From assembly GCA_964187785.1 (NCBI GenBank), contig OZ076409.1, forward strand, positions 16,804,001 through 16,868,000: 64,000 nt of DNA, read 5' to 3'. Below are positions 5,040 to 57,948 of the stretch, one piece after another (position 1 is the first letter of the stretch; each line of letters starts with the position of its first letter). The stretch comes from Amphiscolops sp. MND2022 (taxonomy: Eukaryota). A program made the translations under genes and the position numbers. Below the pieces are notes generated by a model. The model did not search any database, was not told the DNA's origin, and saw only the letters and a list, made by a program, of their open reading frames with translations.

Positions 5040-7950
5040 GTGGGGAAGCTTCCATCTAAGCTTTCGATGGCCCAGGTATTGGGCTCTTCTCACATTCAAA
5101 GTCTGACGGTCTCGCTAGACTTCCCATCTGATTTCTTCCGGTAAGTCCTGAAACGAAGTTTTAACAACCATTCAAAATTTATGTCCAAATTTTTTTTGTA
5201 TACTGTACGTATCCATTTGGTTGTCTACATTTCCTACTTGATCTTCTAGTGGATATAATTTCGATTGTTATTTTTAGTCGGCGCTTTTCTTAAGAAAAGA
5301 GCCTGACCATTACAGTCACTCGTTTTTTTTGTTTAAGACAGACTCGAAGCGACGAACGTTAAAATTAACGTTCAACTACTAAATACAGTACTACCAAAAT
5401 ACTGGCAGCGCATTTGAGATAGTGCAAAGGGTCCCCCCTTTCAGTAAGTCCATTTTTATCGTAAGATACAAAACAGGACGAGACTATAGGGTCCCCCCTT
5501 TGAGTTTTTTTGGCACTGTACGACTTTTTTTTCGAAAAAAAAAATTTTTCCCCAAAGGGTCCCCCTTCGAGTTTTTTGATATTTTGCAACGGAATGTATG
5601 TTAATAAATCCAGAAGGGTCCGTCCCCCTTTTACATTTTTCTGCACTATGCGACTTTTTTTGAAAGAAAAAAATTTTCAAAAAGTTCAATTTTTTTCCTA
5701 AAAAATCTTTTGCGCTGTTTGAGCCTTAGATATGGCGCCGACTTCAGACGTTCCCGTCTTGTTTTCTTGTTGCTCTCGCCGGTTTGAATTTCGCCAGTGT
5801 GCAAATTCAGTTGATCTCAGGGATTTGATATTATTTGATTCTTTACGGACGCAACTGGATTTTCGATTTCGATTTCATTTTGGTCTTGATCTTCGATTTC
5901 TCCTTCCTTACTTTCCAATTCAGTGCCCCTTTCCGGGTGCAGTTTTGCGTTATTTTCAGTTTTCTATTCAAGAGGTTTCCAGGATTTCATTCCGTCTACT
6001 CCGCGGAGACAAAGTCTGTTTTGCGGTCCCTTCTTTCTTTTTGTCGCTCTGAAATACAATAGGTACTCAAATATGTTTCCGATGAGTCATTTTCCGTCTT
6101 CGACGTTTGCATTTTCCTTTGGAAATTTCCTTTGAGTGACATTTTGTTAAAGTTGTTTTATATAAAATTGGAATGGTATTCACCAAGGTATGAACAACCG
6201 TCTTCAATAATATTGGTCAATTCGTTTCTCGCCTTCGTGCCGTGGTGTAGCTTAAATGGCGTTAGTTTTAACACTGGGTGTGTTGTAAATCGCATTCCTT
6301 TTACCGCTTTATTACCACATTCGGTCAGGGATAAATTATTTTCCATATTAACTATATTCAAAGACTTTGTGATTTTGTCTGTGCGTTCAACTACTCGCGT
6401 ACCTGTATGTAGTCCCGGTGGGCAGTACTCAATTTCAATATATTCCTATTTGAAAACCGGTATACTCAATGGAGATACTACCTTCGCCCTCATCCGGTTC
6501 GATCTTGTCTGTTTTTTCGTACAAATAATATTACAGTGGTCCTTGTACTAAGTCCACCAACCACTTACAGTTCACTTTCCCGTTCAAGTTTTTGTGTACT
6601 GTTCCGGAAAAATTGAATTACAGTTCATTTCCGGTTCGGTGAGTGTTTCTAGTTTCCCGCAGTCAGATTTCAATAGTTGATATTCTAGGTTCTTACCACT
6701 CGATTAGCATTATTCGGATTTTGTCACTCTTCCATCAATGTCTCGTGTAAGGTTTAGCCACTAGAAAAATTTTGCTTCTTCTGCCATCTTTGTGTTTCCG
6801 GCATTTCGGTAGTCAGGGTATCCAATAGCTTCTTTCTGAGTTCGAGGACTAACATTTTATCATCGTTGAATATCAGTCCCAATATCACGGATAAGCCGTT
6901 GAATTGTTGTTTATAACCCCCCTGTGCCATATCGCAGTCGTTTCGGTTTATTGGCAGATTCACCTTGTTTAATTCGGCGTCTGTTGTCGATTCTGATATC
7001 AATGTTTCAAATCTAGCATGAAGTCCATCTCAGCTATCTTGATGGTTTCCTCCGTGGTTTTCGTTCCTTCCGTTAATGTTCCGATGATTTGATTTATTTG
7101 AACGTAATGAATTTTTCCTCCGTTTTGTACTTTCTCAGGTCGACGATTGGCAGATTGTCTCCTCTTATCATCTGGCTTTCCCTCTCATTATCCTTCAGAA
7201 GTTTATCGGGCTTTGGTTCAATTTCTTCGGTTGTCTCGTTTTCGGGTGCCGCCATTGGTTGATAGCCTCCGCACATCATCTCACTTTTTTTTCATTCTGA
7301 GCTTTTTCTCCTTTTCACTTTGTCAGGAGCTTTTTGTTTCTTTGAGCGATCATGTATTTTGAAATACGAAATTCTTCGGCTCTTATCCTCTCGAAGCTGC
7401 AATCTTTTTCCGCCAAAAGTTTTCTGGTGATTCTGTCGTGGTTTGTTGTGTCCAAAAGAATTCTTCCCTATTGTGATATGTATATCTTTGCGGTGAGACG
7501 CATTCAATGAATAGTCATATTAAATCTTTAATCGCTGTTTTGTCTGGTTCGGTCTTTTATTCTTTCCGTGTCTTTTAGTACAAAGGGTCTGGGTCAATGC
7601 TTTATATAAAATTTTCTTGTATTTTGTTTCCTTTATCGGTCCAACTACTTTTGTCATTCCGGTTGCCCGTAATAATTGTGTTATATCCTTTTAGATTTTC
7701 GTTTTTTTGTGCATTGCCGAAAATTTTCGAGCCATGGTTGCGGTGTAAATCTCCGTCGGTGATGGCTCAAAATTCGGTACTTCCGTTGGTTTTTTTTGGC
7801 GTCATTGGCGTCATTTTCTTGGTTTCAATAAAAAGTAACGTCAAAGTGTGCTGACTGCGCCATGTTCTTTTTTGGGGCTCGAGCTTAGCGAGATGCCCAT
7901 ATGGTGACGTTTTTTTTCGCAGATTTCGTGACATGTGCCAATTTTTCAAA
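5040..7950 (-). mobile_element. Degenerate Ty3/Gypsy LTR retrotransposon internal region (integrase fragments)
   Basis: The minus strand at 6440-6200 reads IEIEYCPPGLHTGTRVVER...MRFTTHPVLKLTPFKLHHG (integrase core with catalytic E region). A pre-integrase segment lies at 6754-7002. The region is heavily disrupted and interrupted by a HINE-like copy. Confidence 0.7.
5271..5765 (+). mobile_element. DINE-1/HINE-like non-autonomous Helentron-type element, copy 1
   Basis: 5' TTTTTAGTCGGCGC plus adjacent inverted repeat; internal GGGTCCCCC modules; 3' GCGCCGACT + hairpin AGACG-TTCC-CGTCT + TGTTTT. Confidence 0.65.
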
Positions 7951-12336: not shown

Positions 12337-12619
12337 TGTGTCTCACCGATAGCCCTACTTTTCTAATGGCGGACCAGGCCGCTCCATCAGCCAAAATTTG
12401 ATTGAAAAGGGAAAAATTATTATTTCCGGAAGAATTGTGTCTAGCAATTAAAACACACAGGATGCGGGAAAACAAAAAACACATGTGAAAGTATTTACAA
12501 AATGCCGAGGGAAATATTCATCAAAGATACATGTATGCTTTACAATTTTGAACTAGAATTTGAAGTCAATTATTTGAAGGAATGATTCATCGATTTCAAA
12601 TAAAATTCCATTCAGATCA
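12337..12619 (-). repeat. BEL/Pao 3' LTR
   Basis: Direct repeat of 19140-19422. Confidence 0.95.
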
Positions 12620-12727
12620 TAACACCGCCTGCCTTGATTTCGCAGGGAAGAAATTAACAAGAGCGTTGAACACGCAAGCGCATTAAAACAAGGCACAGTA
12701 AAAGAAATATAAGGTTAGGGAACAAAG

Positions 12728-15700
12728 TCATTTGAAATCATCATTGAAATTAGCATCAAACATTTTCTTCAATTTATGCACCGGTCGATTGTAGATTCCT
12801 GTAGCGGTTTTTATTTTTACGACTCTCACAAACTTGTCTGGGCCGGTGTACACATGTTGGATTTTAGCCAATGGCCACTGTAGTGGGGGAATATTGTCAT
12901 CAATTACAAAAACAATATCACCAACTTTCAAATTAGAAATTTCTAGTATCCTTTTATTTCTTTCTTGCAGGGAGAGTACATATTCTTTGACCCATCTTTT
13001 CCAAAAATGAGAGACCATTTTCTGTATTTGTATCCATCTTTTTGAGGGTGAATGTGTACTTTCAGGGTTTTTCAAATTATCATTAGTTTGGCTCAAAGGT
13101 AGATTCTCCAACTTTCCACCCAAGCAGAAATGAGCAGGAGTTAAGAAAAACTCGTCATTTGGATCTTCTGATAATGGGCAGATTGGTCTTGAATTCAAAA
13201 TCTTTTCAATTTGACAAAGCAGAGTACATAGTTCTTCAAAGGACAGAACTTTGTTTCCCATAACTTTTCGGAGATGTATCTTTGCACACTTGATTGCTGA
13301 TTCCCATAGGGCACCAAAGTGAGGAGCTCTTGGAGGGATGAAGAACCACTTGATGTGCAAGCCTGCTGCTTCAGCCTGCAAGGAGTCACAGTGTTCATTC
13401 CTTGATATCTTTTGCAGGTCTGCTATTTTTTTCTCCGAACCAACAAAATTTTTCCCATTGTCACCATAAAGATTTTTAGGGTAACCTCTGCGAGAAACGA
13501 ATCTTCTAATGGCTGCAATACATGCTGCTGTACTAAGATCGGCGACTAGTTCCAGGTGAACTGCTTTACTGGCAAAGCACACAAAAAGTGCTAGGTAGGA
13601 TTTCTCAAGAGAATCCGGAGATTTCCTACAAAGGAAAGGACCAGCAAAGTCTAGGCCCACGTCCTCAAAGGCTTTTATAGGAGGGTCAACTCTTGTCTTT
13701 GGAAGATCTCCCATCAGAAACTGGCTTCGAGTTGAAGCGATTACAACTGACACAATTCATTATCATTTTTCGAACCAAATTTCTACAACTGGGAATCCAG
13801 AAACGAGTTTTAATGTGAGCAATTGTTTGACTAGTCCCACCATGGAGTGTCAGCTGGTGAGAATTCAATACAATTAGACGTGCGAGGTGACTGTCTTGAG
13901 GAATTAGTCTTTGAAACTTGCTTTCTTCGGGCAACTTTGCATGTACTAATCTTCCTCCGACACAAAGAATGCCATTATCGAGAAACGGGTATAATTTGCA
14001 GATTTGACTCTTGGGCTTAACTTGTTGTGCAATTTCTAGAGTTCGGATTTCTTCCGAATATCGTTTCATTTGTTCTTGGCGAATCAAATTTATGATTGAC
14101 TCTGTTAACTCCGGGGCAGTAATGTAGCTTGGTAAAACAACCACGTTCTTCTTCAGTTTGTCAATAAAACGTCTAGCGTAAGCAAGAATTCGGAGGACTT
14201 TGTATAAGGAGTTAAACCTCGACAAATCAATAACATCCTTTTTGGTATCCCTGTGAGCCACAGAGGTTTGAAGACTGGTAATTCCTGTTGTTAGAGTCAA
14301 CTTTTTCAACTCTTCAGATGTTTCAACAATTGACAATGTTTTCGGAAATTCCCCTGTTAGTAACCACTTTGGACCATTCCACCATAGGTCATGTTGGTTC
14401 ATTTCGTCAGGGTTAATTCCTCGAGATGCAGGATCCGCAGGATTCTCCTCGAAACACACATGATTCCAATTCAATTTGTTTTCACTTTGAATTTCACTAA
14501 TTCTGTTTGAAACAAAAGTTGACCAGCAAGATGGTTCTTTTGACAACCATCACAGAACTATTGTTGAATCAGTCCACGCGAAGGTTTCTTCAATAACAAC
14601 TGGCGTTTGACCAATAGACTTGATGACAGATTGATATAACCTAGTGCCTAGCAAAACAGCACATAATTCTAATCTCGGAACAGATTGTGTTTTCACGGGG
14701 TCTACCTTGGTTTTGGCAACAAGCAGGGATGACTTCCGCCTGCCATGAGAATCTGTGGCAACAATATAAATACAAGCGGCATAAGCCCTTTCTGATGCAT
14801 CACAGAAGAGATGCAACTCAAATTTGTCCGAGAATCCATCAAGTAATACGAATCGTTGCAATTCCACATCCTTTAGAGAAATCAATTTCGTTCTCCACTT
14901 CAAATATTGGTCGGCAAGTTCGGAAGGGAGGTGATCATCCCATGAAATTTTTGCTTCCCAAGCCCTTTGCATTAACTGTTTCATGAAAATGGTAACTGGT
15001 GACAACCAACCCAATGTGTCGAAAGTCTTTGAAATGTCACTGAGCACTTGTCTTTGGTCAAAACCTTTGCTTTAAAGTTTTCCTTTTCGATGTGGGAAAC
15101 CTTAAAAACGAAGCGATCTTCGCTGTGTTGCCAAACAATACCGAGCGTTTTTATTGTATGGTCTTTGTCTAAAAACTCCAAGTTATCATTTGCTTCGCGA
15201 TACTCGGGCGGAAGGTCTAAGATAATGCTGGATTCGTTCGAAGTCCACTTGCGGAGATCGAATCTTCCTCGTTTAAGAGTTTCTACTAATTGCTTTTGGA
15301 GTATTCGAGCTTCGTCGATCGAATTGGCTCCAGTGAGAATGTCATCAACATAAAAATCTCTCAGTATAGCTGTTTGAACCTCAGTGGATACTTCCGACAA
15401 ATTGGCACATTCTCGCAAAGATCGGATTGAATGATACGATGAGGAAGCTACACCATATGTAACTCGGGTCATGCGTAAGGTTTCAACCGGACCATCAGCT
15501 GTAAATCTCCAGAGGATCCGATGAAAGTCTCGATCGGCTTTATCCAGCTCAACTTGCCGATACATCTTCGCTACATCAGCTGATAAAGCAATCTTGAAGA
15601 AACGGAATCGTACGAGAAAATTGAACAAATCATCTTGAAGTTTGGGACCAACTAGCAAACAATCATTAAGTGAAAAACCAGTTGTCGTTTTAGCACTAGC

Positions 15701-18001
15701 GTCAAATACAACACGCAATTTGGTGGTTGTACTGTCTTCTTTCAGCACGCAATGATGAGACAAGTAGAAGTTTGGAGAATTATCAATCTCCCTGGATTGG
15801 ACCTTCTCCAAGTGTCCAAGGTCAATGAATTCTTGAATGAAAGCTGAATACTTCCGAGAAAGGTCGACATTATGGCGCAAAGTGTATTCGAGACGAATGA
15901 AACGCTTCATTGCGTTCGCTTTCGAAAGTCCTAAATTGTGGGGTCCATCTTTAAATGGCATCTGTACTACGAAACGGCCGTCTTCATTGCGTTTTGTGGT
16001 GCTATGGAAGTGCTCTTCACAACGACGCTCATCCAAAGTTAAGTGTCTAGTTTCGGGGACACTTTCTATTTCCCAAATATTCAAAAGGAGTTGGTCAGAG
16101 TCACAATTCGGAGTGGTAGTCATGTGGGACACAACGTTGTTGCTGCCAGACGAATACACAGTACCAGACACAACCCAACCGAATACGGAATCCCGAATGC
16201 ACAAGCCGTTGTCCTTTATTTTATTATCAAGCATGTCTTCTATAACATCTGCACCTAGCAAGAGATCAACCTTATTAGGACCGTTAAAAGTGGGATCAGC
16301 TAAGTTAAGATTGTTCACATGGCGCATGGTCGAAACGTCAATTTCTTTATCAGGAATGGTATTGGAGATTTTTGGTATGAGATGAAGATTAACTTCGAGG
16401 GTATCATTCAACTTCACAGGCAATAAGCCTCGAGTTTTTTGGAAATGGGAAGAACCCATTGTAGAAACATTTATTTGGCTGCGCTGAGTTGGCAGCATGA
16501 GCGCCTTTGCAACATCTTCTGTTACGAAACTGGCTTGTGAACCGGAATCTAAGAGAGCCTGCAGCTTGATCGCGTCTCCCGATGAATTCCGAATTGTTAC
16601 AAGAGATGTAAAAAGAAGAACAGTATTTATTTCATTGTCAGCACTGAAGTGCCCTGTGGTGAATTGTTTTGTAGACTCCATTTTGTTGGAAGTTGAATTC
16701 ATACTTGAATAAATCTTTGTAGAGGTGCGTTGATCAGGGAGCTGTTTCTGAGGTCGATGAAGCAAGGTGTGATGTTTCATTTTGCACTCACGACAAGTGA
16801 ACTTAGATGGGCACGCATTAGACGAGTGTCCTGATTGGAAGCAGTTGAAACAGAGTTTTTTGTCTTTTATGAACTTATGTCTATCAGCAAGACACATTCC
16901 TTTGAATTGTGAACAAGCGTAAAGGCGATGATCCTCCTGGCAAGATTCGCACGATGAGCCTTGAACAGCATAATTCTGAACTCTTTTGGTCAGAGTATGA
17001 TTCCCTTGGTTACAGGGAGGAGTCACACTTGGTTGCGGTGTGACCTTTGTGCCACCCGATTCGAGTGCACGGCTTCTTGTGTCAAGGAATTTTGACAATA
17101 ATTCCCAAGACAAAACGTCAGTGCCAGGATTATCCAGCTGCCACTGCTTACGTGACTCTGGATCCATCTTGTCCGTCAGAACAAAAACTAAGATTGCATT
17201 CCAGTGCTCTATTGGTTGACCAAGTTCAACGAGTGCTCGTAACTGCTCATTGGTGAGCTCCAGAAGTTTTCTCAATCCAAGAGCGGATTCAGTTTTCAAA
17301 ACCGGCTGCGACCAAATTGCTTGCAAATGAGCTTGAATGATGCTCCTTTTATTTTCATATCGATCTTTCAACAATGCAAAGGCAATATTGTAGTTTGCGT
17401 CAGTTATCGAGATTGAACTAATGAGTCTCGCTGCTTCACCCTTCACACAGGCTTTCAAATAGTTCAGCTTCTCTGAATTGGAGAGATGGGTATTAGAATC
17501 GACGGAGGCCTTGAATAGGTCAAAGAAACTCATCCAGTCAGTGTGTGATCCAGTGAATGTTGGTAACTGAAGTTTAGGCAACTTCAATCTACTCGATGTG
17601 ACAGAACTTGATGGTGAAGAGTCTGTTGAAAACTCACACGGAGGTCTATCGCATTCTTTTTTGTAATTCTCAATCAATGCAGACAACCTAGCGATGGTAA
17701 CACTAGCAGAAACATGGAACTCCGTTTGCTGTTCCAGTTCATTGGCTAAATCATCTTCATCATCTATCAATAATTCAATTTCCGCATCAAACTTATGAAT
17801 CATTGCAATTCTATCTTGTAATGTCTTCAGCAAAGCTTCACCTTGAAACAATTTAGTTGAAGAGTCAATAGCAGTGACTGTAAATTCATCAACTTTCTGT
17901 TCCAATCTAGTGAAAGCACCTTTGTGACCACCTCGGATGCGAGTAAGTTTTCTATCTTCAGTGGCTGGTTGTACGGAAGCACTACTTTCAGTTACAGACA
18001 T
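12728..18001 (-). pseudogene. BEL/Pao gag-pol polyprotein, disrupted by 2 frameshifts and 1 stop
   Basis: 14981-18001: gag LKLPKLQLPTF, zinc knuckles CFNC..GH..C..C..C...HH, protease LLDSGSQ, RT FYVDD. 14550-15047: RNase H FCDASERAY. Stop at ~14550. 13686-14546: HGG/C..C zinc-binding region. 12728-13753: integrase DFAGP/GDNG/WESAIK and Pao C-terminus. Confidence 0.93.
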
Positions 18002-18145
18002 TTTTCAGATTACAATACAACACTATCACGAACAATAAACAAAGTAAATAATCCTCAAAGTCAAGTCGGATAGGCCACCGATGAGCTTATCGTCCAGTGA
18101 CCACATCGAACTCACCTCACAGGATGAAATAAAAAACTTCTAACG

Positions 18146-18760
18146 TTAAGTTGACTTCAAACTCTGCTCCAAAAGCTTCTTCAATCTTCTTTTCCTTTGA
18201 GAAGGTTTCTTGCTGGGACTTCTTGTATTTTGGGATAAAGCTTTAAGATTGTTTCGGTGCTCCAAAACAATGAACAAAGACTTCAATTCAATATCCGCTA
18301 CTGGATGAAGTCGGGAATATTCATTCAAAAGAGGAATATCATTCTGTTTTCTACGAGAAAGAAGATTTTCTGTGACTCGAATAACAATGAAATCATGATC
18401 ACGAAGATCATCAAATGCATGGGGTGCACCAATACGTTCACAATAGACTAAGGTTGTTATACGTGATTTATATTTTAACAATTCAGTTGCTTATTCTTTT
18501 GGGGTAAGAGCTGTATTGTTATTTGATTTATGGGGAGTCAAGGAGTTGTTCAGAATGTCATGCCAAATAACTAATTGATTCGTATTTTTAAGAATACCAT
18601 GATCCAGTAGAAAAGACAATTTGAGCGTATCACTTTGAACATAGGGTTTCAAGCTCAAAGAACGAATGGCTGTGATAAAGTTCCCAAGGGTATTTCGGTT
18701 ATCAAAATCCAAGTTTTGTAAAGCTCGTTTTAGTGAACTTGCACCGATAATATTTATCAT
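18146..18760 (-). pseudogene. Extra ORF upstream of gag inside the BEL element, SGNH/GDSL-hydrolase-like, one in-frame stop
   Basis: ORFs 18491-18895 and 18146-18481 share a frame, separated by one TAA. From ATG 18760: IIGASSL (block I-like), VIWHDILNNS (block III-like), SRLHP (block V-like) and a basic tail. Confidence 0.55.
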
Positions 18761-19139
18761 GAGTGAAGTTTTTGGTTTGCTAGGGGTAAGCTGAAGGTCG
18801 ATCAGAGACTTCGTAAAAATGTGACTATCTGTATCCAAAATTTTAGGAAGTAATAATAAAGGACAAACTATCAGGGGGATGCACAGTTTTTTCACCGTCG
18901 AAAAAACGAAATGCCTTTAAGTTGTAAAATGGAAAGAGCTAACCGGGGAATGACGATCAATCGTGGATGAAGCTGAGACTAGCAGGTTGAAGGGTTTGCA
19001 AGTTAGTTACTTGGTAATTAGTTACTTGACAATCGAGTGTTACTTTTGTAAGGACAACTTTTGGTACAAAGTACCAAAAAAAGTAGTTTCTTTTCGAAAG
19101 TTCAAAGTTCGTAAGTCCGTGGTCTATGGCGGACCAAAA

Positions 19140-19422
19140 TGTGTCTCACCGATAGCCCTACTTTTCTAATGGCGAACCAGGCCGCTCCATCAGCCAAAAA
19201 ATGATTTAAAAAGGAAAAATTATTATTTCCGGAAGATTTGTGTCTAGCAATTAAAACACACAGGATGCGGGAAAACAAAAAACACATGTGAAAGTATTTA
19301 CAAACTGCCGAGGGTTATATTCATCCAAGATACATGTATGCTTTACAATTTTGAACTAGAATTTGAAGTCAATTATTTGAAGGAATGATTCATCGATTTC
19401 AAATAGAATTCCATTCAGAACA
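19140..19422 (-). repeat. BEL/Pao 5' LTR
   Basis: Direct repeat of 12337-12619. Confidence 0.95.
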
Positions 19423-19789
19423 TGGGGTGAAATAATATGGGGTGAAATGAACTTGGGGTGAAATGATACGAAATAATTTGAACAATTTTGGAAAAAGTGC
19501 CTAACTGAAAAATTGTTGGGGAAATTATCTAAAATGACCCAAATAGTCAAAATTTCACAAAAGCAGTGTTGATTAAGTTTCTTTGGAACGTATTTTAATA
19601 TATTTCTTGGATATAAAGTATTTATCGACGTAAACACCGAGATATATAAAATGATTTTTTTCGAAGATCAACGCCAGTGATTTTCGTGAGAAACCTTCAG
19701 TATTGTTATATATATCTTCGACATAGTTGCGAACAGTTTGGCCACAAATATCGAAAGTGAACGCCTATTTATTGGCAGGGTCGTCAAAC

Positions 19790-20300
19790 CACTAAAAATG
19801 GAGAGGGGGCTTCCCCAGGCATACCGCTAAGGCGTAGCATATTTTTGGAGAAAGGTCCTTTTCCCTTGGTGGGCGGAAAATTGATTCAACCGTCTTTTGG
19901 TTCTCTTTTCGTTGTAAACTGAGTTCGAGTGGGTGTTTTTCTTTATAATGCCCAAGTGGGTGGCACGTGCCAGCATTATGACCCCAGCTGTAGTTAGCGG
20001 AGCAATTTGGTTGTCTGCAGTACACTCGACCTACACGAATTTCGCATAAGTCTTCATATCGAGGCTTTTTGGCATTTGATGCCATGGACACAACTAGTTT
20101 GTTATCAACATACACGAGAAATAACAAGTGATCTGATTTGGATTGAAATTGAATACTCAGGCAGTCAATCGCAGAAATTCACGCTAGCAGCTGCTAATTA
20201 TCTAAATTCAGTGGATACGCGGACGCTTTTTCTCAGAAATGTGGACCGCGGACCACTTAAGCGGACCGCGGACTACCATGGTCCGCTTTGGACCCCAGTG
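19790..20300 (-). mobile_element. hAT-like transposon 5' end with BED zinc-finger transposase fragment
   Basis: The minus-strand terminus CACTGGGGTCC has repeated GCGGACC subterminal motifs (20210-20300). ORF 19792-20127 has CRQPNC...TCHPLGHYKEKHP (BED-finger pattern) and is then truncated. Confidence 0.6.
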
Positions 20301-22720
20301 TATACTAAAAACTTTGGCGAAATTCTACCAGTATTAGATTTATTTTTCTTCATCAAGAATATCTTAGGTAAATAAACTTAATATACAAAGATGAAAAATA
20401 CCGTTTACGGTACTCTGGTGTCTCAAAATACCTACCGTTACATGCACGAAATTTTGAATGTTATACTTAAAATACCGAGTAACGGAAACTTTTATACAAG
20501 TCAAATCACTGCAATGAAGTGTTAGAATTCGAGTTTAATAAAACGCAGCTCTTGATCAATAGCATCTAATAATTTTATAAATCAATGAAGCTATCGTATC
20601 GTGTACTTCCGAAGAACTATTTGATTTGCTTGAAGATCCATTAAGTTTCTCAGTACTTGAACACAACTTCGATGTGGCTTCCAGTTGATTTAATTCGGTC
20701 AGAAACAGTTATTGAAGAAATTGGTGGTCCTTAGTCAATATTTCTTTAGCTGGATAACCACCGATTTCAAATGAAATTGATAACCATAATATTTTTGTGT
20801 TTTAGTGTTCATAAAATGTTTCAGGGTTGGATTCTCATCTCAGAATTCAGAGCTGTGACCCGGTTTTGCTTCCCTTATATCCTTATTTATCTCTTGTTCT
20901 TATCAAACTGGCTGTATTTGTTTTCTATGTGACACTCTCATCAGATAATCGAATAATGTCCTTTTCACAACGTATTGTCAATTTTCATCTGGTTATCTTT
21001 TCACGACAAAAAGCCAACTGATCAACACACTAAAAACTCAGAGAGCTATCAATTTCTGTACAAATTCTTTGAATCAATAGGTTTCCAAAGATCCACTTTT
21101 CGATCCAAAAAATGAACACAAAATTTGTCACCTATTTTCCCCTTTTGGCAAAAAGCTCGGAAGAATGGAAGATCATGGTAGAAAATTACATTTTAAAGTT
21201 TGCACAAAGGTAGACGAGACTTAAGGGTCCCTCCGTTTTTTGGTACTGTGCGTCTTTCTATTGACAATTTTACAACAAGGGCTCCTTTGACTTTTTGATT
21301 CGATGTTCTGAGAAAGAAGAGCGTTTTTCGTGTCTCAAGCGTGCCCTCGTAGGTTATATGTTAGTACTGTGAGATTGATAAGATTTCTCAATAATTGTTC
21401 TTGAGTATACTTGGAAGATATCCCAACTTCTTTCAAATTGATCAATGGTATTTTTGAATTATTGACTGTTTTCTCTGTTTAAATCTTGCCAAGACGGCTT
21501 TGGGAACACTTTAAAAATTGCTATTTTAGAAGGCTACATGTTAATTCGTCTATGCAATTCCAAACGTTATTTCAAATTATTACACTTTCAATCGCTTGCT
21601 ATTTCAACCTGTTGTGTCACCGAACATCAAAATTCTTTCGTTGTCGTGTTTCAATGTCTTTCGGAAGAAATGGTTTGAACTCAGCGGGACAGTCAAAATG
21701 GCAGTCAATGGAAGTGGGAATGTCAATTTTATTCTCTTTGTCGAACGCTTTCTGCTTTATTTGGCTCACAACTTCTTTCACCTTACACTCGGGTCACTTT
21801 CATGCGTGTGAGTGACTTTGAAACTAATCACAATGTTCTGGTTTGTCTTCAAAAAGGCTGGGAATTTTGGACAATTCTTCGTGCATTTCCGTTGAATGCA
21901 ACTCGGAGTGACTTGTTTTTCATTGTAACAGTTATGTACTGCGATGTTGCCCTGTTTGATTTTCTGATTTGAACTAGCATGATTTGAGTCTCAATTTGCA
22001 TTGGGCTTGCTGTGTGGAATGGTTACAATTCAGTCGACTACACTTTTATACAGCGAAAACATTCCAAGAAATTGTCACAAGTCATAGTGTGAAAGATTTA
22101 GTTGCTCGACTATTTTTAAAGCATTACTAATCGTAATAAAGGTTTTCATAATTAGCAGTTCTTGAGAGTAATTATTGGAAAGTGTGATATTTCGAAATTA
22201 CTGTAGTATAAAATTGCAAAAGGTTGAAAGTGTGAACAGATAAAATTGAGCGGTTGAAAGTGCGAACGGTTGAAACTGCATAGGACGAAATGTTTTGATC
22301 AGGGACCGTAGTTTTGTGCGCGCTTCTAAAATCGCACAATGAGCCCATAATCGGCGTTCTTCAAGAATGCGCGTAAAAGAGCATAATCCTGCTATATTAG
22401 AAATGAATTAGAAAAAAAACCTAATTTTAGCTGACTTATTAACAGCTGAAATATTCTTGAAGAAAAACAGCATTCGGTTTGCACCGAAACGAAGACTCTC
22501 ATTTTCAACTAGGAAAAATTCACAGTCCTTCGTTTCGGTGTGGCCCAAATTGTTCAATTTTATTGGGTCAGCAAAAGATTTGATGTTTCTGTACATAAAT
22601 TCGTTTTTCCTGTTAGTCAGGACCAAAAACATTATTGCGAACGAGCGCATATTTTCCATAAAATGAGCAACAGAGCCTCTAAAATGGCAGAATTTGCCGC
22701 ATACTGTCATAATTTAGCGT

Positions 22721-23344
22721 AACAAGACGGGAACGTCTAAAGTCGGCGCTATATCTAAGGCTCAAGAAGCTCAGTTTTCTAAATATGCCCAGGATGTATT
22801 CATGAAAAGCTTTGAAAACACTTTCGAGACACCCAAAGTGTGCCTTTCATGCTCGATATGACTGGAAAATCACTTTTCTCGACTGGAAACAAAAAAATTT
22901 TTGAAAATTTTTTTGAAAATTTTTTTTGAAAAAAATTTTTGAAAAAAACTTCGAAAACGTCGCATAGTGCCGAAAAATGAAAAGGGGGGACCCTTTGGGA
23001 TTCATTAACATATTTTCTGTTGCAAAATATCAAAAAATCCGAAGGGGGGACTCTTTTGAAAAATTGAAAATTTTCGAAAAAAAATTCGCACAGTGCCGAA
23101 AAAAATTGAAAGGGGGGACCCTTTGGAGTCTTCCGGTTTTGTAGGTTACGTAAAAAAGGTAAAAAACGAAAGGGGGGACCCTTTGCAGTAAGTTTGCATT
23201 GGTGGAACTTGGCCTGAGTGAACTTATCAGTTTCTGTAAAAAGTGGTACATACGCGATGAGCTCTGTGGTCTGACGAAAAAAAAAAAACTAGCCACTGTA
23301 ATAGTCGGGCTTTTTTCCTTAAAGGAAAATGCGCCGACTAAAAA
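22721..23344 (-). mobile_element. DINE-1/HINE-like element, copy 2
   Basis: AACAAGACGGGAACGTCTAAAGTCGGCGC ... GCGCCGACTAAAAA; same termini as copy 1 in reverse orientation. Confidence 0.65.
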
Positions 23345-33300: not shown

Positions 33301-36300
33301 ACTAGGTGCAATTACAAAAAACCTCTGTATTGCACTTTAGTTTAGTTTTTCTTTTTCATCGATACTTTAGACATTGAAGTACTTTTTTGGTTCCAATTGA
33401 AACTGAGTACCTAATGAAGGTGACTACAGTGATGGTTTCCATCGTTTTGAGCGACTTCAAAACGAGAATTGGAAAAGTTCAAGATTAGCATTTACCAAGT
33501 TTGATGGACAATAACGAAGATTGCAACAACGGTAAGAGCGATCACAAGAACGACGATGACAACAACGATAACAACATTTTCTGTTTGATTCTGTTTTAGT
33601 TTATGTATGCTTGTCTGTATGTGACTGTGAATGCTTTTGTTTGTTGGTCAACTCTGTGGGCATGTGCATGTAATGTATGCTTTTTGGTTGATCTGCTGTT
33701 TCTCCTTTGTGGTTACTTCGCTGTTTGTTGTCCAGTATCTTTTTTTACTACTTTCCGCCCTTCAAACAAAACCCCTGAACAATCAATTTATTTTTTTTAC
33801 ATTCAATTCATCATTGAGTGATGTCATCTTTTTCTATCGTCTTAGTTTTCATACTTTAATTTTATATATTACAAGTAATTGCTTTGTCATTCAAAATTGA
33901 CAGTTACCGAAGATTATGTACCAAGCAACGCCCGATCGACTGTAGCCTTGCGGTACCAACGCTTTCGTCGACGCGCACAATGCCTCAATATCGCCTCCCC
34001 CATTCTCGCCATGTTTTTTTTTTCATTGTACCTATAAAATTATTGGTGCTCTGTCCCAACTCATTGGGTTTGATTAAATTTCTGTCTCATGAAATGTTTC
34101 ATACAGCCATTCAGCTGCATTAAACTTTCTTCTTCATTCAGTACTAACTTGTGATGCAGGGACAAGTTCAGGTCAACTACACTGTAATTTGAAGTAGTGT
34201 CTGAGGATATGCTGTAGACATCTGCATTGTTTGAAGACGCCTGCTTAACATGAGTCAGGATCCCATAGCCGATTATTCGATCCGGGAAATGATGAGTCAT
34301 TGATAGCACGTCCCTGGCCTACAAAGAGAGAGCACAATTACAGGAATATTTATATTAAGGATGCAATCTAAACTTTGAAATTTCGGAAGTATTTTTCAGA
34401 ATCTTTCTCTAAATATTTACAACAGAATATTCATCAACTTAAACTTTTATTGCTCTTAATTGAAAACCCTCCTCTTTTTGGAGCCGATAGCGAGTAAACT
34501 TTAAAGGACATGAAAGTTTTCGAAGATGTAGAACGTTTTTCGTGAAACTTGAACAGGGTTGGTCAATATAAAACATGGGCGTTTTAAAACAGTTTTAAAA
34601 CACTGTTTTATTTTGAATAAAATACAGTCCGATCAAATGTTTTTTTATTTCTTCATTTCACGAACATGTAATCGCTGTAGACAGACAAGTAGGCGTCAAA
34701 ATGAGTTATTTTATAAAATGACAAGTAAAAATGAAAACCTATCCTGAAAAATTAGTGAAATTGGCACTCGAAATGGCATGCCTAGTCCATCCATTCTGAT
34801 CTTCGCAACAGGCTTGGAGTTCAGAAAGTTGAAAAACCTAGTTTTGTGATTCGATATTTGAATGATATTGAATAAATTCATTCTTTCAAGCTTGTTTTTC
34901 TATCTTTGTTCGAGAGAATTTTAAACATTTCTTTAAAATAATTTAAAACTTAGAATGGCCAACCCTGAACTTGAATGATTCTTCTTAAGAGAAAATCAGA
35001 AATACCTGTTTGCCTAAATTTGAGGAGTAGGATGAACAGTCGACTCTCAAGATGAAAGAGCCAGAGATTTCAAAAACAGTATCCAGGTATAGAAGAGACA
35101 AAACTGTGTTTTCTTTGATGACCAATCCGTCGTCCAATAAAATATTCCCTCGGCGATCCAGACCCAAAGACACGAAAACAACCTGAAACGAAATTTACGT
35201 TCAGTGCTAATCACGTGCAGAAGTCACGAAAACTTCAATTTAGCCCAAAGCCACTGATTACTTGAGCCTCACTTCCACCGCTCCTTTCTACAAAAATTCT
35301 TCGAAAACAGAAAATATTTTTTTAAAATGCAGCACTTTAGTTGAGCGCGGTAGTACAAAATTTTGTAGGGTGATGTCATTTTTAGTCCGCGCTTTTTCGT
35401 AGAAAAACGCAGACTATAGTAGTGACTTTTTTTCTTTTTTTCTAAGACCAACGAAGTGACAGATTTTATAAGCTTTATAAGCAGACTTGAACTAACACTA
35501 AATGCCACACTACTTCTACTGGCACTTGAGATAGAGGTTAATTAGGCTTTTTTGAGGTCCCCTTTTATATTTTTCGGCACTATGCGACTTACCGGGGACC
35601 AAAAAAAATTTGAAAATTTCGAATTTTTTCGATTTTTTCCTCATGCGGGTACTGTAGAAGAGAATACTTGACACTTTGAAGTCCTTTTGCTATTTTGAGC
35701 CTTAGATATGGCGCCGACCTGGGGCGTGGGTTCGAGTCCCGCCCATGACCAAAAATTTTTTGTGCAGGTTTTTTCGGCTTTGTGAGACTTTTTTTCGCAA
35801 ATTTTTTAAATGTCTCCAAAGGCCCCCTTCATTTTTTTCCTATTTTGCAAAACAATGGATGTTCAAAAACTCCAAAGGCCCCCCTTTTACATTTTTCGGC
35901 ACTATGCGACTTACTGGAGACCAAAAAAATCGAAAAAAAATCAAAAAAAAACCAAAATAAATTGGAATTGTTTTTCAATTTTTTCCTCAAGCGGGTACTG
36001 TAGAAGAGAATACTTGACACATTGAAGTCCTTTTGCTATTTTTGAGCCTTGGATATGGCGCCGACTTGGGCCGTTCCCGGCTTGTTTTCATTTCATGAGA
36101 TTTCATTGAACTTTTTATTACCTAAAGTGCGTCATGGTTGAACCAACGAGAATTGTTCTATTCCGACTTTTCCCGATGAGATGCGATTTTCTGGTTATGT
36201 AGCATTGACTTTCAACTGATTCGATCAATAAACGGATCGTTATTTGAATACTTTTCGGAAGCATAAACCAGTGATGTACAGCAATTCCGAAAAAAAATTT

Positions 36301-44636: not shown

Positions 44637-45594
44637 GTCAGTCCACCAAGAAGTCACATCCGATACAACTGAAATGGGGCAAGCGAATTTCAGACAATCA
44701 ACTCATGGATCAGACCTCCAACTCTATCTTCTACAGCACGGCTTGTCTCAGAGTTTCAAGACCTTTGCTGCTAAATGGTTCGCACAAAAATAGCCGATAG
44801 TTCAGCGGCGTACGGCATTATCGTCATATCCAATTTCGACCTAATTGCCATTTCAACTGCTCACATTTCAGTCTATTGCACTTTCAATTTTCTACAATTT
44901 CAACCTAAACCAATTTTTGGCAAGGGATCTTTTTAGGTTATTGGAAATTTTCAACTGTTTTCAATTTTCATACAATTATAAACTTATATTTGCTAAATTT
45001 TACGTCATTTTTGATAAAATTTGGCTTCTTTGTGAAAAAATAAATACGTATCAATAATTTTGTCTGTTTGATTCATTACAAACTATTGTAATGAAACATT
45101 AACCGAGTTAGGGGTAATTAGCCAAAATTAGTTTAGATCGAAATTTCGGAAAGTTGAAACTGCCATCATGGACCTATGATAGGTGGAGATTGCATAGATC
45201 GAAATGTCAGGTAACTCAGTTTATTATCTACGTAGTTACCAAATTTAGTCAATTGGGAGCAAGAGCATGACATCAATTATTTTTTAAATGTTTTATCGTG
45301 AGAAAATGTTTAAATTTTTGTAAAATTTTGTATCTAACGTATCGATAGAGACTTTTCGTATCGCATTGTTAAACAGTGATGGTACAAGTTAGTCATGGTG
45401 TTTGACATTTGAGCATTCTATTGGTTGCCACTATTACAATTTGATGACGGAACGGAGTTTCCAGAAAAAAAGTAGCACAGTGCTGAAGAAACACGAAGGG
45501 GGACCCTCTGACCTCGTTCACCTCTGTAAACAACTTTTTAGTTCAGCGTGGTATTCGAAATCATGAGCCCGCTGGAGTTTCTGACTAATTGTTG

Positions 45595-46107
45595 AAACAA
45601 GCCGAGAACGGCCAAAGTCGGCGCCATATCTAAGGCTCAAAATTTAAAAGGGGGACCCTTTGGGCTTTGTGAAACTCCAGCTGGTTGCAAAAAATTTTTG
45701 AAAAATTGAATGGGGGACCCTTTGGAGACATGAAAAAATTTCCCAAAAAAATTTTTAAATGAGATTTTTGAACAGTGTCACAGTGCCGAAAAATGTAAAA
45801 GGGGGACCCTTTGCTATTTTTTGACATCCATTGTGTTGCAGAATATCGAAACAAATGAAGGGGGGACCCTCTGATGCAATCCAAAAAACTTCAAAAAAAG
45901 TCGCATAGTGCCGAAAAAAAGTGGGGCTAAGGTGGGATCTTTAGTGTGTTTTCGAGGTTGTGGACGTATGTTTTGTTTTTTCTTTTCGTTTTGGACGCGC
46001 TTCTGAGGTTGGAGTTGTTGAGGTTTGAAGTTGTTGAGGTTTGAGGTTGTTGAACAAATGAACAAAAAAGTGGACCTTTCTACTAAAATGCGCCGACTAA
46101 AAAAAAA
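45595..46107 (-). mobile_element. DINE-1/HINE-like element, copy 4
   Basis: AACAAGCCGAGAACGGCCAAAGTCGGCGC ... GCGCCGACTAAAAA. Confidence 0.65.
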
Positions 46108-46529
46108 CGGCTGTTTCGTCCCGTTTTTAAAATCGGCTTCTTTGGTTTTGCTTGGCTGCTTTGTGTCGATTCCTTTAATGCCGCTTTTCGAAAGCCAGCA
46201 GACGTGTCAAATCAAACATTCTGTTCAAATGCGTGTATAATTTTTCAAAACCAAGGCGAGATTCGAACCCGCGAATTCATGTTCCCCACGCGCTAACAAC
46301 CGGACCAAGTGACGGGCCAACAACGTGATTTTATAAAAATGAAACTTTACAATAGTGGACGCCGACTACAAAAACAAAGAAAATTTTTCAATGATCGAAT
46401 GCAGTCTCGGCTCGAGAAACAGCGTTTAAGAAGCGAAATCCAAATAACGCTCATTCGTTCCATGTATTTATTTGTTAGTCGGGAAACTTAATTTTTTTGA
46501 GATGTTAAGAAATTAAAGCGTATGACCAA

Positions 46530-46948
46530 TTTTTTAGTCGGCGCTTTTCTTAAGAGTCGACTATAGTCATGGCTTTTCGTCAGTTTTTTTTCGATACACC
46601 TGAAGTGACCAATATAGTTCTACAAAATTTTAAGACGCCGCCAAATTGTACCTGTTGGCCCAAGGAACTGAACCAAAAAGGTTTCCCGCGTGAGATAAAA
46701 TACCGGACGAGACTAAAGGGCCCACCCTTCGTTTTTTTTTCGGAAAAAAATACTAAAGAGTCTCTCTTCAATTTTTTTGAACGGATGTTGAAAAATCTCA
46801 AAGTGTCCCCCTTTCAGTTGTTTTGGCATTGAGACTTTTTTCAGAAAATTTTCGGGTGCTTTAGAAGAGAATACTTTGACACTTCGAAGTCCATTTGCTA
46901 TTTTTGAGCCTAAGATATGGCGCCGACTTGGGCCGTCCCGGCTTGTTT
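46530..46948 (+). mobile_element. DINE-1/HINE-like element, copy 5
   Basis: TTTTTTAGTCGGCGC ... GCGCCGACTTGGGCCGTCCCGGCTTGTTT. Confidence 0.65.

Positions 46949-48515: not shown

Positions 48516-57948
<9,433 letters not shown>

Follow-up and report, generated by a model that had tools for sequence, protein, structure and literature searches.

Ahead of gag in a BEL/Pao retrotransposon of Amphiscolops sp. MND2022 lies a stand-alone gene, here called ORFx, for a predicted SGNH-fold protein. The element occupies 19422 to 12337 of the minus strand (7.1 kb) in the window, a stretch of 64,000 nucleotides from contig OZ076409.1 (assembly GCA_964187785.1, positions 16,804,001 to 16,868,000). ORFx is almost certainly a real accessory gene. 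Our reading as a whole, to which we give a probability of roughly 0.6, is that it is an accessory gene of one BEL subclade, that it derives from a module of a family found in long interspersed nuclear elements (LINEs), and that its product has a role at the membrane or in the particle. The initial annotation of this DNA had proposed an open reading frame (ORF) dedicated to a BEL lineage. The gene is indeed fixed and selected in a BEL subclade, but it is not BEL-specific, as most of its readable relatives lie in LINEs. Neither of the outcomes that the annotation had set against its own proposal, the lack of any SGNH fold match and a one-off or neutrally evolving ORF, came about.

The frame lies inside matched long terminal repeats (LTRs), sense to gag-pol and upstream of gag, as had been described. 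It runs on the minus strand from the ATG at 18760 to the TAA at 18148-18146 (18146..18760, 204 codons) and is interrupted by a single TAA at codon 90 (18493-18491). Each of IIGASSL, VIWHDILNNS, and SRLHP is found in it, as is the basic tail, a Lys/Arg-rich C-terminus in a protein with an isoelectric point of 9.8-11.7. The upstream limit of 18895 did not hold, for this position is a GTG and not the ORFx start. We take 18760 as the start because the alignments of relatives begin at its Met and because the 45-codon in-frame extension from the GTG does not resemble the corresponding extensions in a second lineage (two of two comparisons); a 249-codon ORF from 18895 was ruled out on the latter ground.

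Structure prediction leaves little doubt that ORFx adopts the SGNH fold assigned to it earlier. The predicted structure has the flavodoxin-like arrangement of five strands, and the top fold matches are O-acetyltransferases and acetyl esterases. An Atlas search with the relative P0129 led to GDSL clusters at 0.89, which is a lead only, and P0003 gave no usable match. The viral fold library returned nothing at E ≤ 0.001. The esterase of the element ZfL2-1 (PDB 4C1B) gave no profile match at E ≤ 10 and is absent among the fold matches listed (50 per list).

Active-site residues were located by comparing motif spacing with Table 2 of PMC10792757, not from measured geometry (statements drawn from this source and, below, from PMC3905857, PMC4120745, PMC5408684, PMC3118150, Schneider et al., and bioRxiv 10.1101/2025.03.14.642691 refer to the accessible parts of each). 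They comprise Ser8 in block I, Ser34 in block II, His67 and Asn71 in block III, and His152 in block V. Across the family, Ser8 is kept in 99 of 107 rows, His67 in 100 of 110, Asn71 in 91 of 110, and His152 in 103 of 109. The residue that opens block III, His67, stands four before Asn71 and matches the transposon-specific His191/Asn195 of ZfL2-1 (HVGTND). Catalytic blocks had been described as altered (GAS for GDS, HDxxN for GxND), but the active site is less altered than that: the Ser of block I, the Asn of block III, and the His of block V are kept, and the true departures are the loss of the block V Asp throughout the family and, in the BEL clade only, Ser in place of the block II Gly. SGNH enzymes that lack the Asp and use a main-chain oxygen instead are an accepted group (1ESC, 3PT5), and the block II residue varies among accepted members too (PMC10792757). 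By analogy with the ZfL2-1 esterase, ORFx is probably catalytically active. The competing idea is a pseudo-enzyme resembling the OSK domain of Oskar, in which the SGNH fold and basic tail would bind RNA and would chaperone the genome or shield it from small-RNA silencing without any hydrolysis. We consider this unlikely, given that few positions of ORFx are better conserved than Ser8 and His152, both of which OSK lacks, and that the Asp-less enzymes exist.

ORFx belongs to a large family, and its similarity to the other members is far above chance. A word search yielded 202 candidates, among them 43 homologue clusters with 29-97% identity. At E ≤ 0.001, a profile search found 884 clusters, and the top 150 range from 99 to 377 amino acids in length. 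Relatives are typically about 200 amino acids and begin at the first strand; none of the family members inspected carries an annotated name. The window's own ORFx cluster has 79 members, and nine of the 15 listed run from the start motif to the C-terminus. The leader of the window copy is common to ORFx relatives, and P0043 continues across the spacer beyond the gag start; therefore, at least one further copy has ORFx ahead of gag. No relatives were found in 21 stretches of the genome contig collection or in 53 of the viral contig collection.

Linkage between ORFx and particular BEL families was gauged from contigs common to ORFx clusters and gag-pol clusters, matched by their lengths, using partial member lists and a matrix of 49 cells; P0244, which is on short contigs with none shared, was excluded. 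All four contigs of ORFx cluster P0096 are shared with P0246, a gag family with 57% identity to the window gag, and lineage P0019/P0028 occurs on seven of nine with P0251 (55% identical). The Poisson P values of these pairings, 4e-11 and 4e-17, follow a post hoc choice, yet hold after 49 cells. The window's own ORFx lineage (49 known contigs) has three contigs in common with the 14 listed for its own gag cluster of 236 members, and the remaining cells contain two matches in 14,189 pairs. Identity between linked families is 49-53% for ORFx, comparable to the 39-53% of the Gag N-terminus, nucleocapsid, and protease and lower than the 66-76% of the capsid and reverse transcriptase (RT). Seven BEL-clade rows form a single branch in a 34-row tree (support 99/92) and in a quick tree of 132 rows (96). 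Six BEL-clade lineages have 49 of 177 columns invariant, against 24.6 expected at equal rates, and the invariant sites are those conserved in the rest of the family (Spearman 0.58). This protein-level evidence points to purifying selection on ORFx within the BEL clade.

Relatives with readable surroundings come from a metagenome scan in which 12 of 55 candidate stretches were confirmed; five of the 12 were uninformative and none was BEL. A separate ORFx precedes ORF1 in L001, L003, L007, L008, L009, L010, and L011, which amount to six elements when the near copies L009 and L011 are counted as one. An endonuclease-type ORF2 follows in five of these LINE loci, with the RT complete in L001 and L008 and the endonuclease of L007 judged by eye, and ORF1 gave weak PHD/C4 matches in four of six scanned. 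One 377-residue relative, P0162, joins ORFx to a PHD finger in a single product (E 3.2e-9) and is probably a frameshifted LINE copy; it marks one more deep branch as LINE-linked. LINE-linked rows are spread over several deep branches to either side of the midpoint, whereas the BEL clade is a single shallow branch with about 50% identity inside it. This distribution makes transfer of ORFx from LINEs to BEL the likely direction. A different origin, in which BEL and LINEs each acquired the module from some third source, be it a host gene or a different element, or in which it passed from BEL to LINEs, would fit an unrooted tree, the missing context of most of the 884 clusters, the uninformative loci, and the absence of a nearby ORF1 (within 400-530 nt) and of AUG depletion in L004 and L006. 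The branching pattern speaks against it, as does an AUG-free signature that is whole in LINEs and partial in BEL, as expected of a vestige, and we regard such an origin as improbable. By eye, TTAAATAG recurs upstream of the first ORF in L001, L003, L005, L008, and L009, possibly as an element 5′ end or promoter, and a GTAGC/GCAGC..GTGG run follows it in L001, L008, and L009. In L012, a copia-type gag fragment (49-369 on the minus strand, E 6e-5) lies on the opposite strand, 3.3 kb from a broken ORFx relative.

The AUG-free signature bears on how ORFx and the gene behind it would be translated. Internal Met residues number 40 in 19,858 across the ORFx family, against 1.4-2.4% in gag-pol and ORF2. 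From the ORFx start to the ORF1 start, six LINE loci contain three AUGs versus 78.5 expected (P 1e-6 to 4e-5 each); L010 lacks an ORFx start and so stands outside this count. In L001, L003, L008, and L009, the first AUG after the ORFx start is the ORF1 start itself, 666-783 nt downstream. At position -3, LINE loci have a pyrimidine at the ORFx start and a purine at the ORF1 start; 31 proteins with an in-frame extension, whose rows are non-independent, imply a pyrimidine in 24, are ambiguous in four, and imply a purine in three. A synonymous-codon test restricted to out-of-frame AUGs is weak at individual loci (P from 0.001 to 0.14 for those in LINEs). Read from sequence, the pattern looks like a signature of leaky scanning, complete in LINEs and partial in BEL. 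The BEL copy combines a weak context at the ORFx start with a strong one at the gag start; its 379 nt leader (18761..19139, minus strand) has no ATG versus 4.9 expected from composition, and none of 16 BEL-clade or sister proteins has an internal Met. Leaky scanning alone to gag was rejected for the BEL family, where nine AUGs intervene and ORFx holds eight out-of-frame AUGs versus 5.3 expected; therefore, gag needs splicing or reinitiation. Read-through from ORFx into gag was also rejected, for the frame is the same, yet more stops lie within the spacer (18002..18145, minus strand, 144 nt). By eye, the spacer region offers a candidate pair of splice sites, with the donor GT at 18115 and the acceptor AG, in a pyrimidine-rich setting, at 18024-18023. 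Neither the leader (z -0.28) nor the spacer (z -0.41) folds unusually. In-frame AUGs are nevertheless still avoided in BEL.

The mechanism that we propose begins with the ancestor of the BEL subclade gaining the ORFx module once, probably from a LINE through template switching or nested insertion, and then retaining it. ORFx would be translated from the first AUG past the primer site, in a weak context; in LINEs, ribosomes would leak through to ORF1, and in BEL, gag would be served by splicing or reinitiation. The surface charge of the protein might bind negatively charged membranes, in analogy to ZfL2-1, while its Lys/Arg tail could hold RNA or the Gag particle. The Ser-His dyad would slowly cut an acyl ester and may release a membrane-anchored particle, and particle assembly or transport would thereby be coupled to membranes. 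A membrane role, argued by analogy, has about even odds. An active enzyme with a target other than a membrane lipid would instead take acetyl or acyl groups off a protein, glycan, or signalling molecule of the host and thereby serve in counter-defence or regulation. The closest folds, O-acetyltransferases and acetyl esterases, favour this version, Schneider et al. keep deacetylation and depalmitoylation as options, and a separate ORF requires no fusion to capsid or ORF1; we still hold it to be less likely than either alternative discussed above. That ORFx is neutral cargo, a one-off insertion in decay, is highly improbable and already contradicted: the stop in the window copy and the truncation of six of the 15 listed members of its cluster would agree with it, but the gag-pol of the window copy is also broken three times, and in three gag-pol families, lineages that are about 50% identical have kept ORFx open at an unchanged length and with its conserved sites.

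Several results weigh against the reading of ORFx as a LINE-derived, membrane- or particle-associated SGNH protein of a BEL subclade. Sequence searches do not recover the fold: Pfam gave no match for the window ORFx and no SGNH family among the matches listed for sets of 21 and 110 relatives, a PDB sequence search with the family gave no SGNH match, and what these searches returned was at chance level (actin, TPR_ZFYVE26, KaiA_N). Foldseek returned nothing at E ≤ 0.001. No coiled coil was found in ORFx, unlike in esterase ORF1 proteins. The block V Asp is missing family-wide, with position 149, three before the His, variable and Asp outside its eight commonest residues; block II is Ser in all six BEL-clade lineages and Gly in 89% of rows outside the clade; and P0003, the copy whose fold was predicted, lacks the block V His. 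Four of the nine AUGs between the ORFx and gag starts of the window copy have a purine at -3. The ORFx tree has no outgroup and does not fix the direction of transfer. In terms of linkage, a shared contig is not adjacency, and the position ahead of gag was observed in the window's own family alone. On the partial lists, where a loss and a missed detection look alike, none of the gag families P0247, P0248, P0249, and P0255 has contigs in common with an ORFx lineage that would belong to it, and the 28-member lineage P0022 (P0022/P0059), within the BEL clade, matched no gag family. P0247 is 86-88% identical to an ORFx-bearing family, so a recent loss is possible.

Esterases in transposons, and gene sharing between retroelement classes, have precedents. 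An esterase is described in the ORF1 protein (ORF1p) of L2, CR1, RTEX, and Penelope-like elements, behind a coiled coil, and that of ZfL2-1 is slow and uses its surface charge to bind liposomes and anionic lipids (PMC3905857); one survey limits Jockey-group esterases to two vertebrate subgroups (PMC4120745). ORFx resembles the ZfL2-1 domain in its fold, in the spacing Ser / PG / H-x-x-x-N / L-H-P with the transposon-specific His, in being very basic, and in its position 5′ of the replication genes. It differs in standing alone rather than fused behind a coiled coil as ORF1p, in lacking the catalytic Asp, in its C-terminal basic motif, and in residing in an LTR element; it accompanies Gag or a PHD/C4-type ORF1 and does not replace it, the LINE loci having a separate ORF1. 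The Vesta LTR elements of bdelloid rotifers have a GDSL ORF3 downstream of pol that is common to Athena Penelope-like elements (PMC5408684). Like ORFx, this is an SGNH hydrolase as its own ORF in an LTR element and is found across retroelement classes; unlike ORFx, which is in BEL/Pao, ahead of gag, and shared with LINEs, it has canonical catalytic residues and does not cluster with LINE esterases. MDG1-group gypsy elements, which are env-less like this one, also carry accessory ORFs between the 5′ LTR and gag, but sORF1 and sORF2 have 70-110 residues, one being transmembrane and FAST-like (bioRxiv 10.1101/2025.03.14.642691), whereas ORFx has 204 and a globular enzyme fold. Rice tungro bacilliform virus and badnaviruses translate AUG-free upstream ORFs by leaky scanning (PMC5902531), and they share with ORFx an accessory ORF before the main one, a weak start context, and no internal AUG. 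These are plant pararetroviruses, whereas here, as inferred from sequence alone, animal LINEs show the complete signature and BEL a partial one.

Published descriptions of BEL/Pao elements give them gag and pol, with env as the most that is added (PMC8742986; PMC3118150), and the accessible text of PMC3118150 contains "esterase" 0 times. Literature searches, which covered few subscription papers and not Repbase, found no BEL/Pao esterase, none ahead of gag, and no three-ORF esterase LINE; term look-ups in PMC7599744 and PMC13524379 likewise gave nothing of relevance. The BEL/Pao gene order, the stand-alone LINE form, and the AUG-free signature were thus not found in print, and the supplement of PMC3905857 and Kapitonov and Jurka 2003 may bear on their novelty. 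A bolder and doubtful extension is that leaky-scanned three-ORF LINEs are defined by a large family, so far undescribed, of "ORF zero" genes for stand-alone esterases, and that this is a portable module that moved into BEL/Pao as an envelope-free means of membrane binding or remodelling; if true, it may let BEL particles enter vesicles or pass between cells. The role of retrotransposon esterases has been open since the ZfL2-1 structure, in which the domain is fused into ORF1p, and there it is dispensable in HeLa cells. ORFx appears to be selected in two element classes with different replication routes, and therefore its job should lie in a step common to both, such as RNA-protein assembly, membrane traffic, or host evasion. 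A small soluble protein of about 200 residues makes esterase function testable. The system also adds a BEL/Pao gene order, a three-ORF LINE layout with an apparent leaky-scanning signature, and a likely LINE-to-LTR gene transfer.

In its remaining features, the window element resembles BEL/Pao members. The LTR pair, 19140-19423 and 12337-12620, measures 284 nt each at 96% identity. The 5′ LTR (19140..19422, minus strand, about 283 nt) is bounded by TG...CA, and the 3′ LTR (12337..12624) starts at either 12624 or 12619. Read from sequence, a primer-binding-site-like stretch (19121..19136, minus strand) begins with TGG 3 nt past the LTR, and a polypurine-tract-like run (12625..12635, minus strand) precedes the 3′ LTR. 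The primer-site-like stretch is also similar to 19163-19179 near the LTR 3′ end, about 40 nt upstream. Gag-pol (12728..18001, minus strand, ATG at 18001) is a single frame whose homologues are BEL/Pao polyproteins; it encodes a DUF1759 capsid (2.6e-36), zinc knuckles, protease, RT, Peptidase_A17 in the RNase H region (3.1e-49), integrase domains also matched in Pfam, and DUF5641 (5.4e-30), with no space for env. It is broken by frameshifts near 15070-14981 and 13756-13686 and by a stop at 14552-14550; therefore, the window copy is dead. Sizes agree with Belpaoviridae, in which the two LTRs measure 0.2-1.2 kb and the whole element 4.2-10 kb, as does the order Gag, protease, RT, RNase H, integrase with BEL-type domains. 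Priming in that family uses a site that pairs with a host tRNA for Arg or Gly, and here the TGG-starting sequence is the candidate for such a site. The flanking 5-mers CCCCA and CGCCA, identical at four of five positions, suggest a target-site duplication, and the element sits within a minisatellite of 15-16 nt that is found to either side of it; therefore, the element is a single insertion.

Elsewhere in the window, a 128-codon frame outside the 5′ LTR (19792-20178, minus strand) has a Cys/His pattern with no Pfam match, which we take to be reminiscent of a BED zinc finger. A host gene in pieces (48516-56665, minus strand) includes a long exon of low complexity and, at 53180-54966, encodes a MYST zinc finger and a MOZ/SAS acetyltransferase domain; it marks the host as animal-type, with introns in its genes. 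Dispersed repeats with recurring GGGGGACCC units occur in both orientations at 5269-5764, 22707-23324, 35551-36087, 45468-46939, and 51639-52346, and from their sequence they may be a family resembling miniature inverted-repeat transposable elements or satellites.
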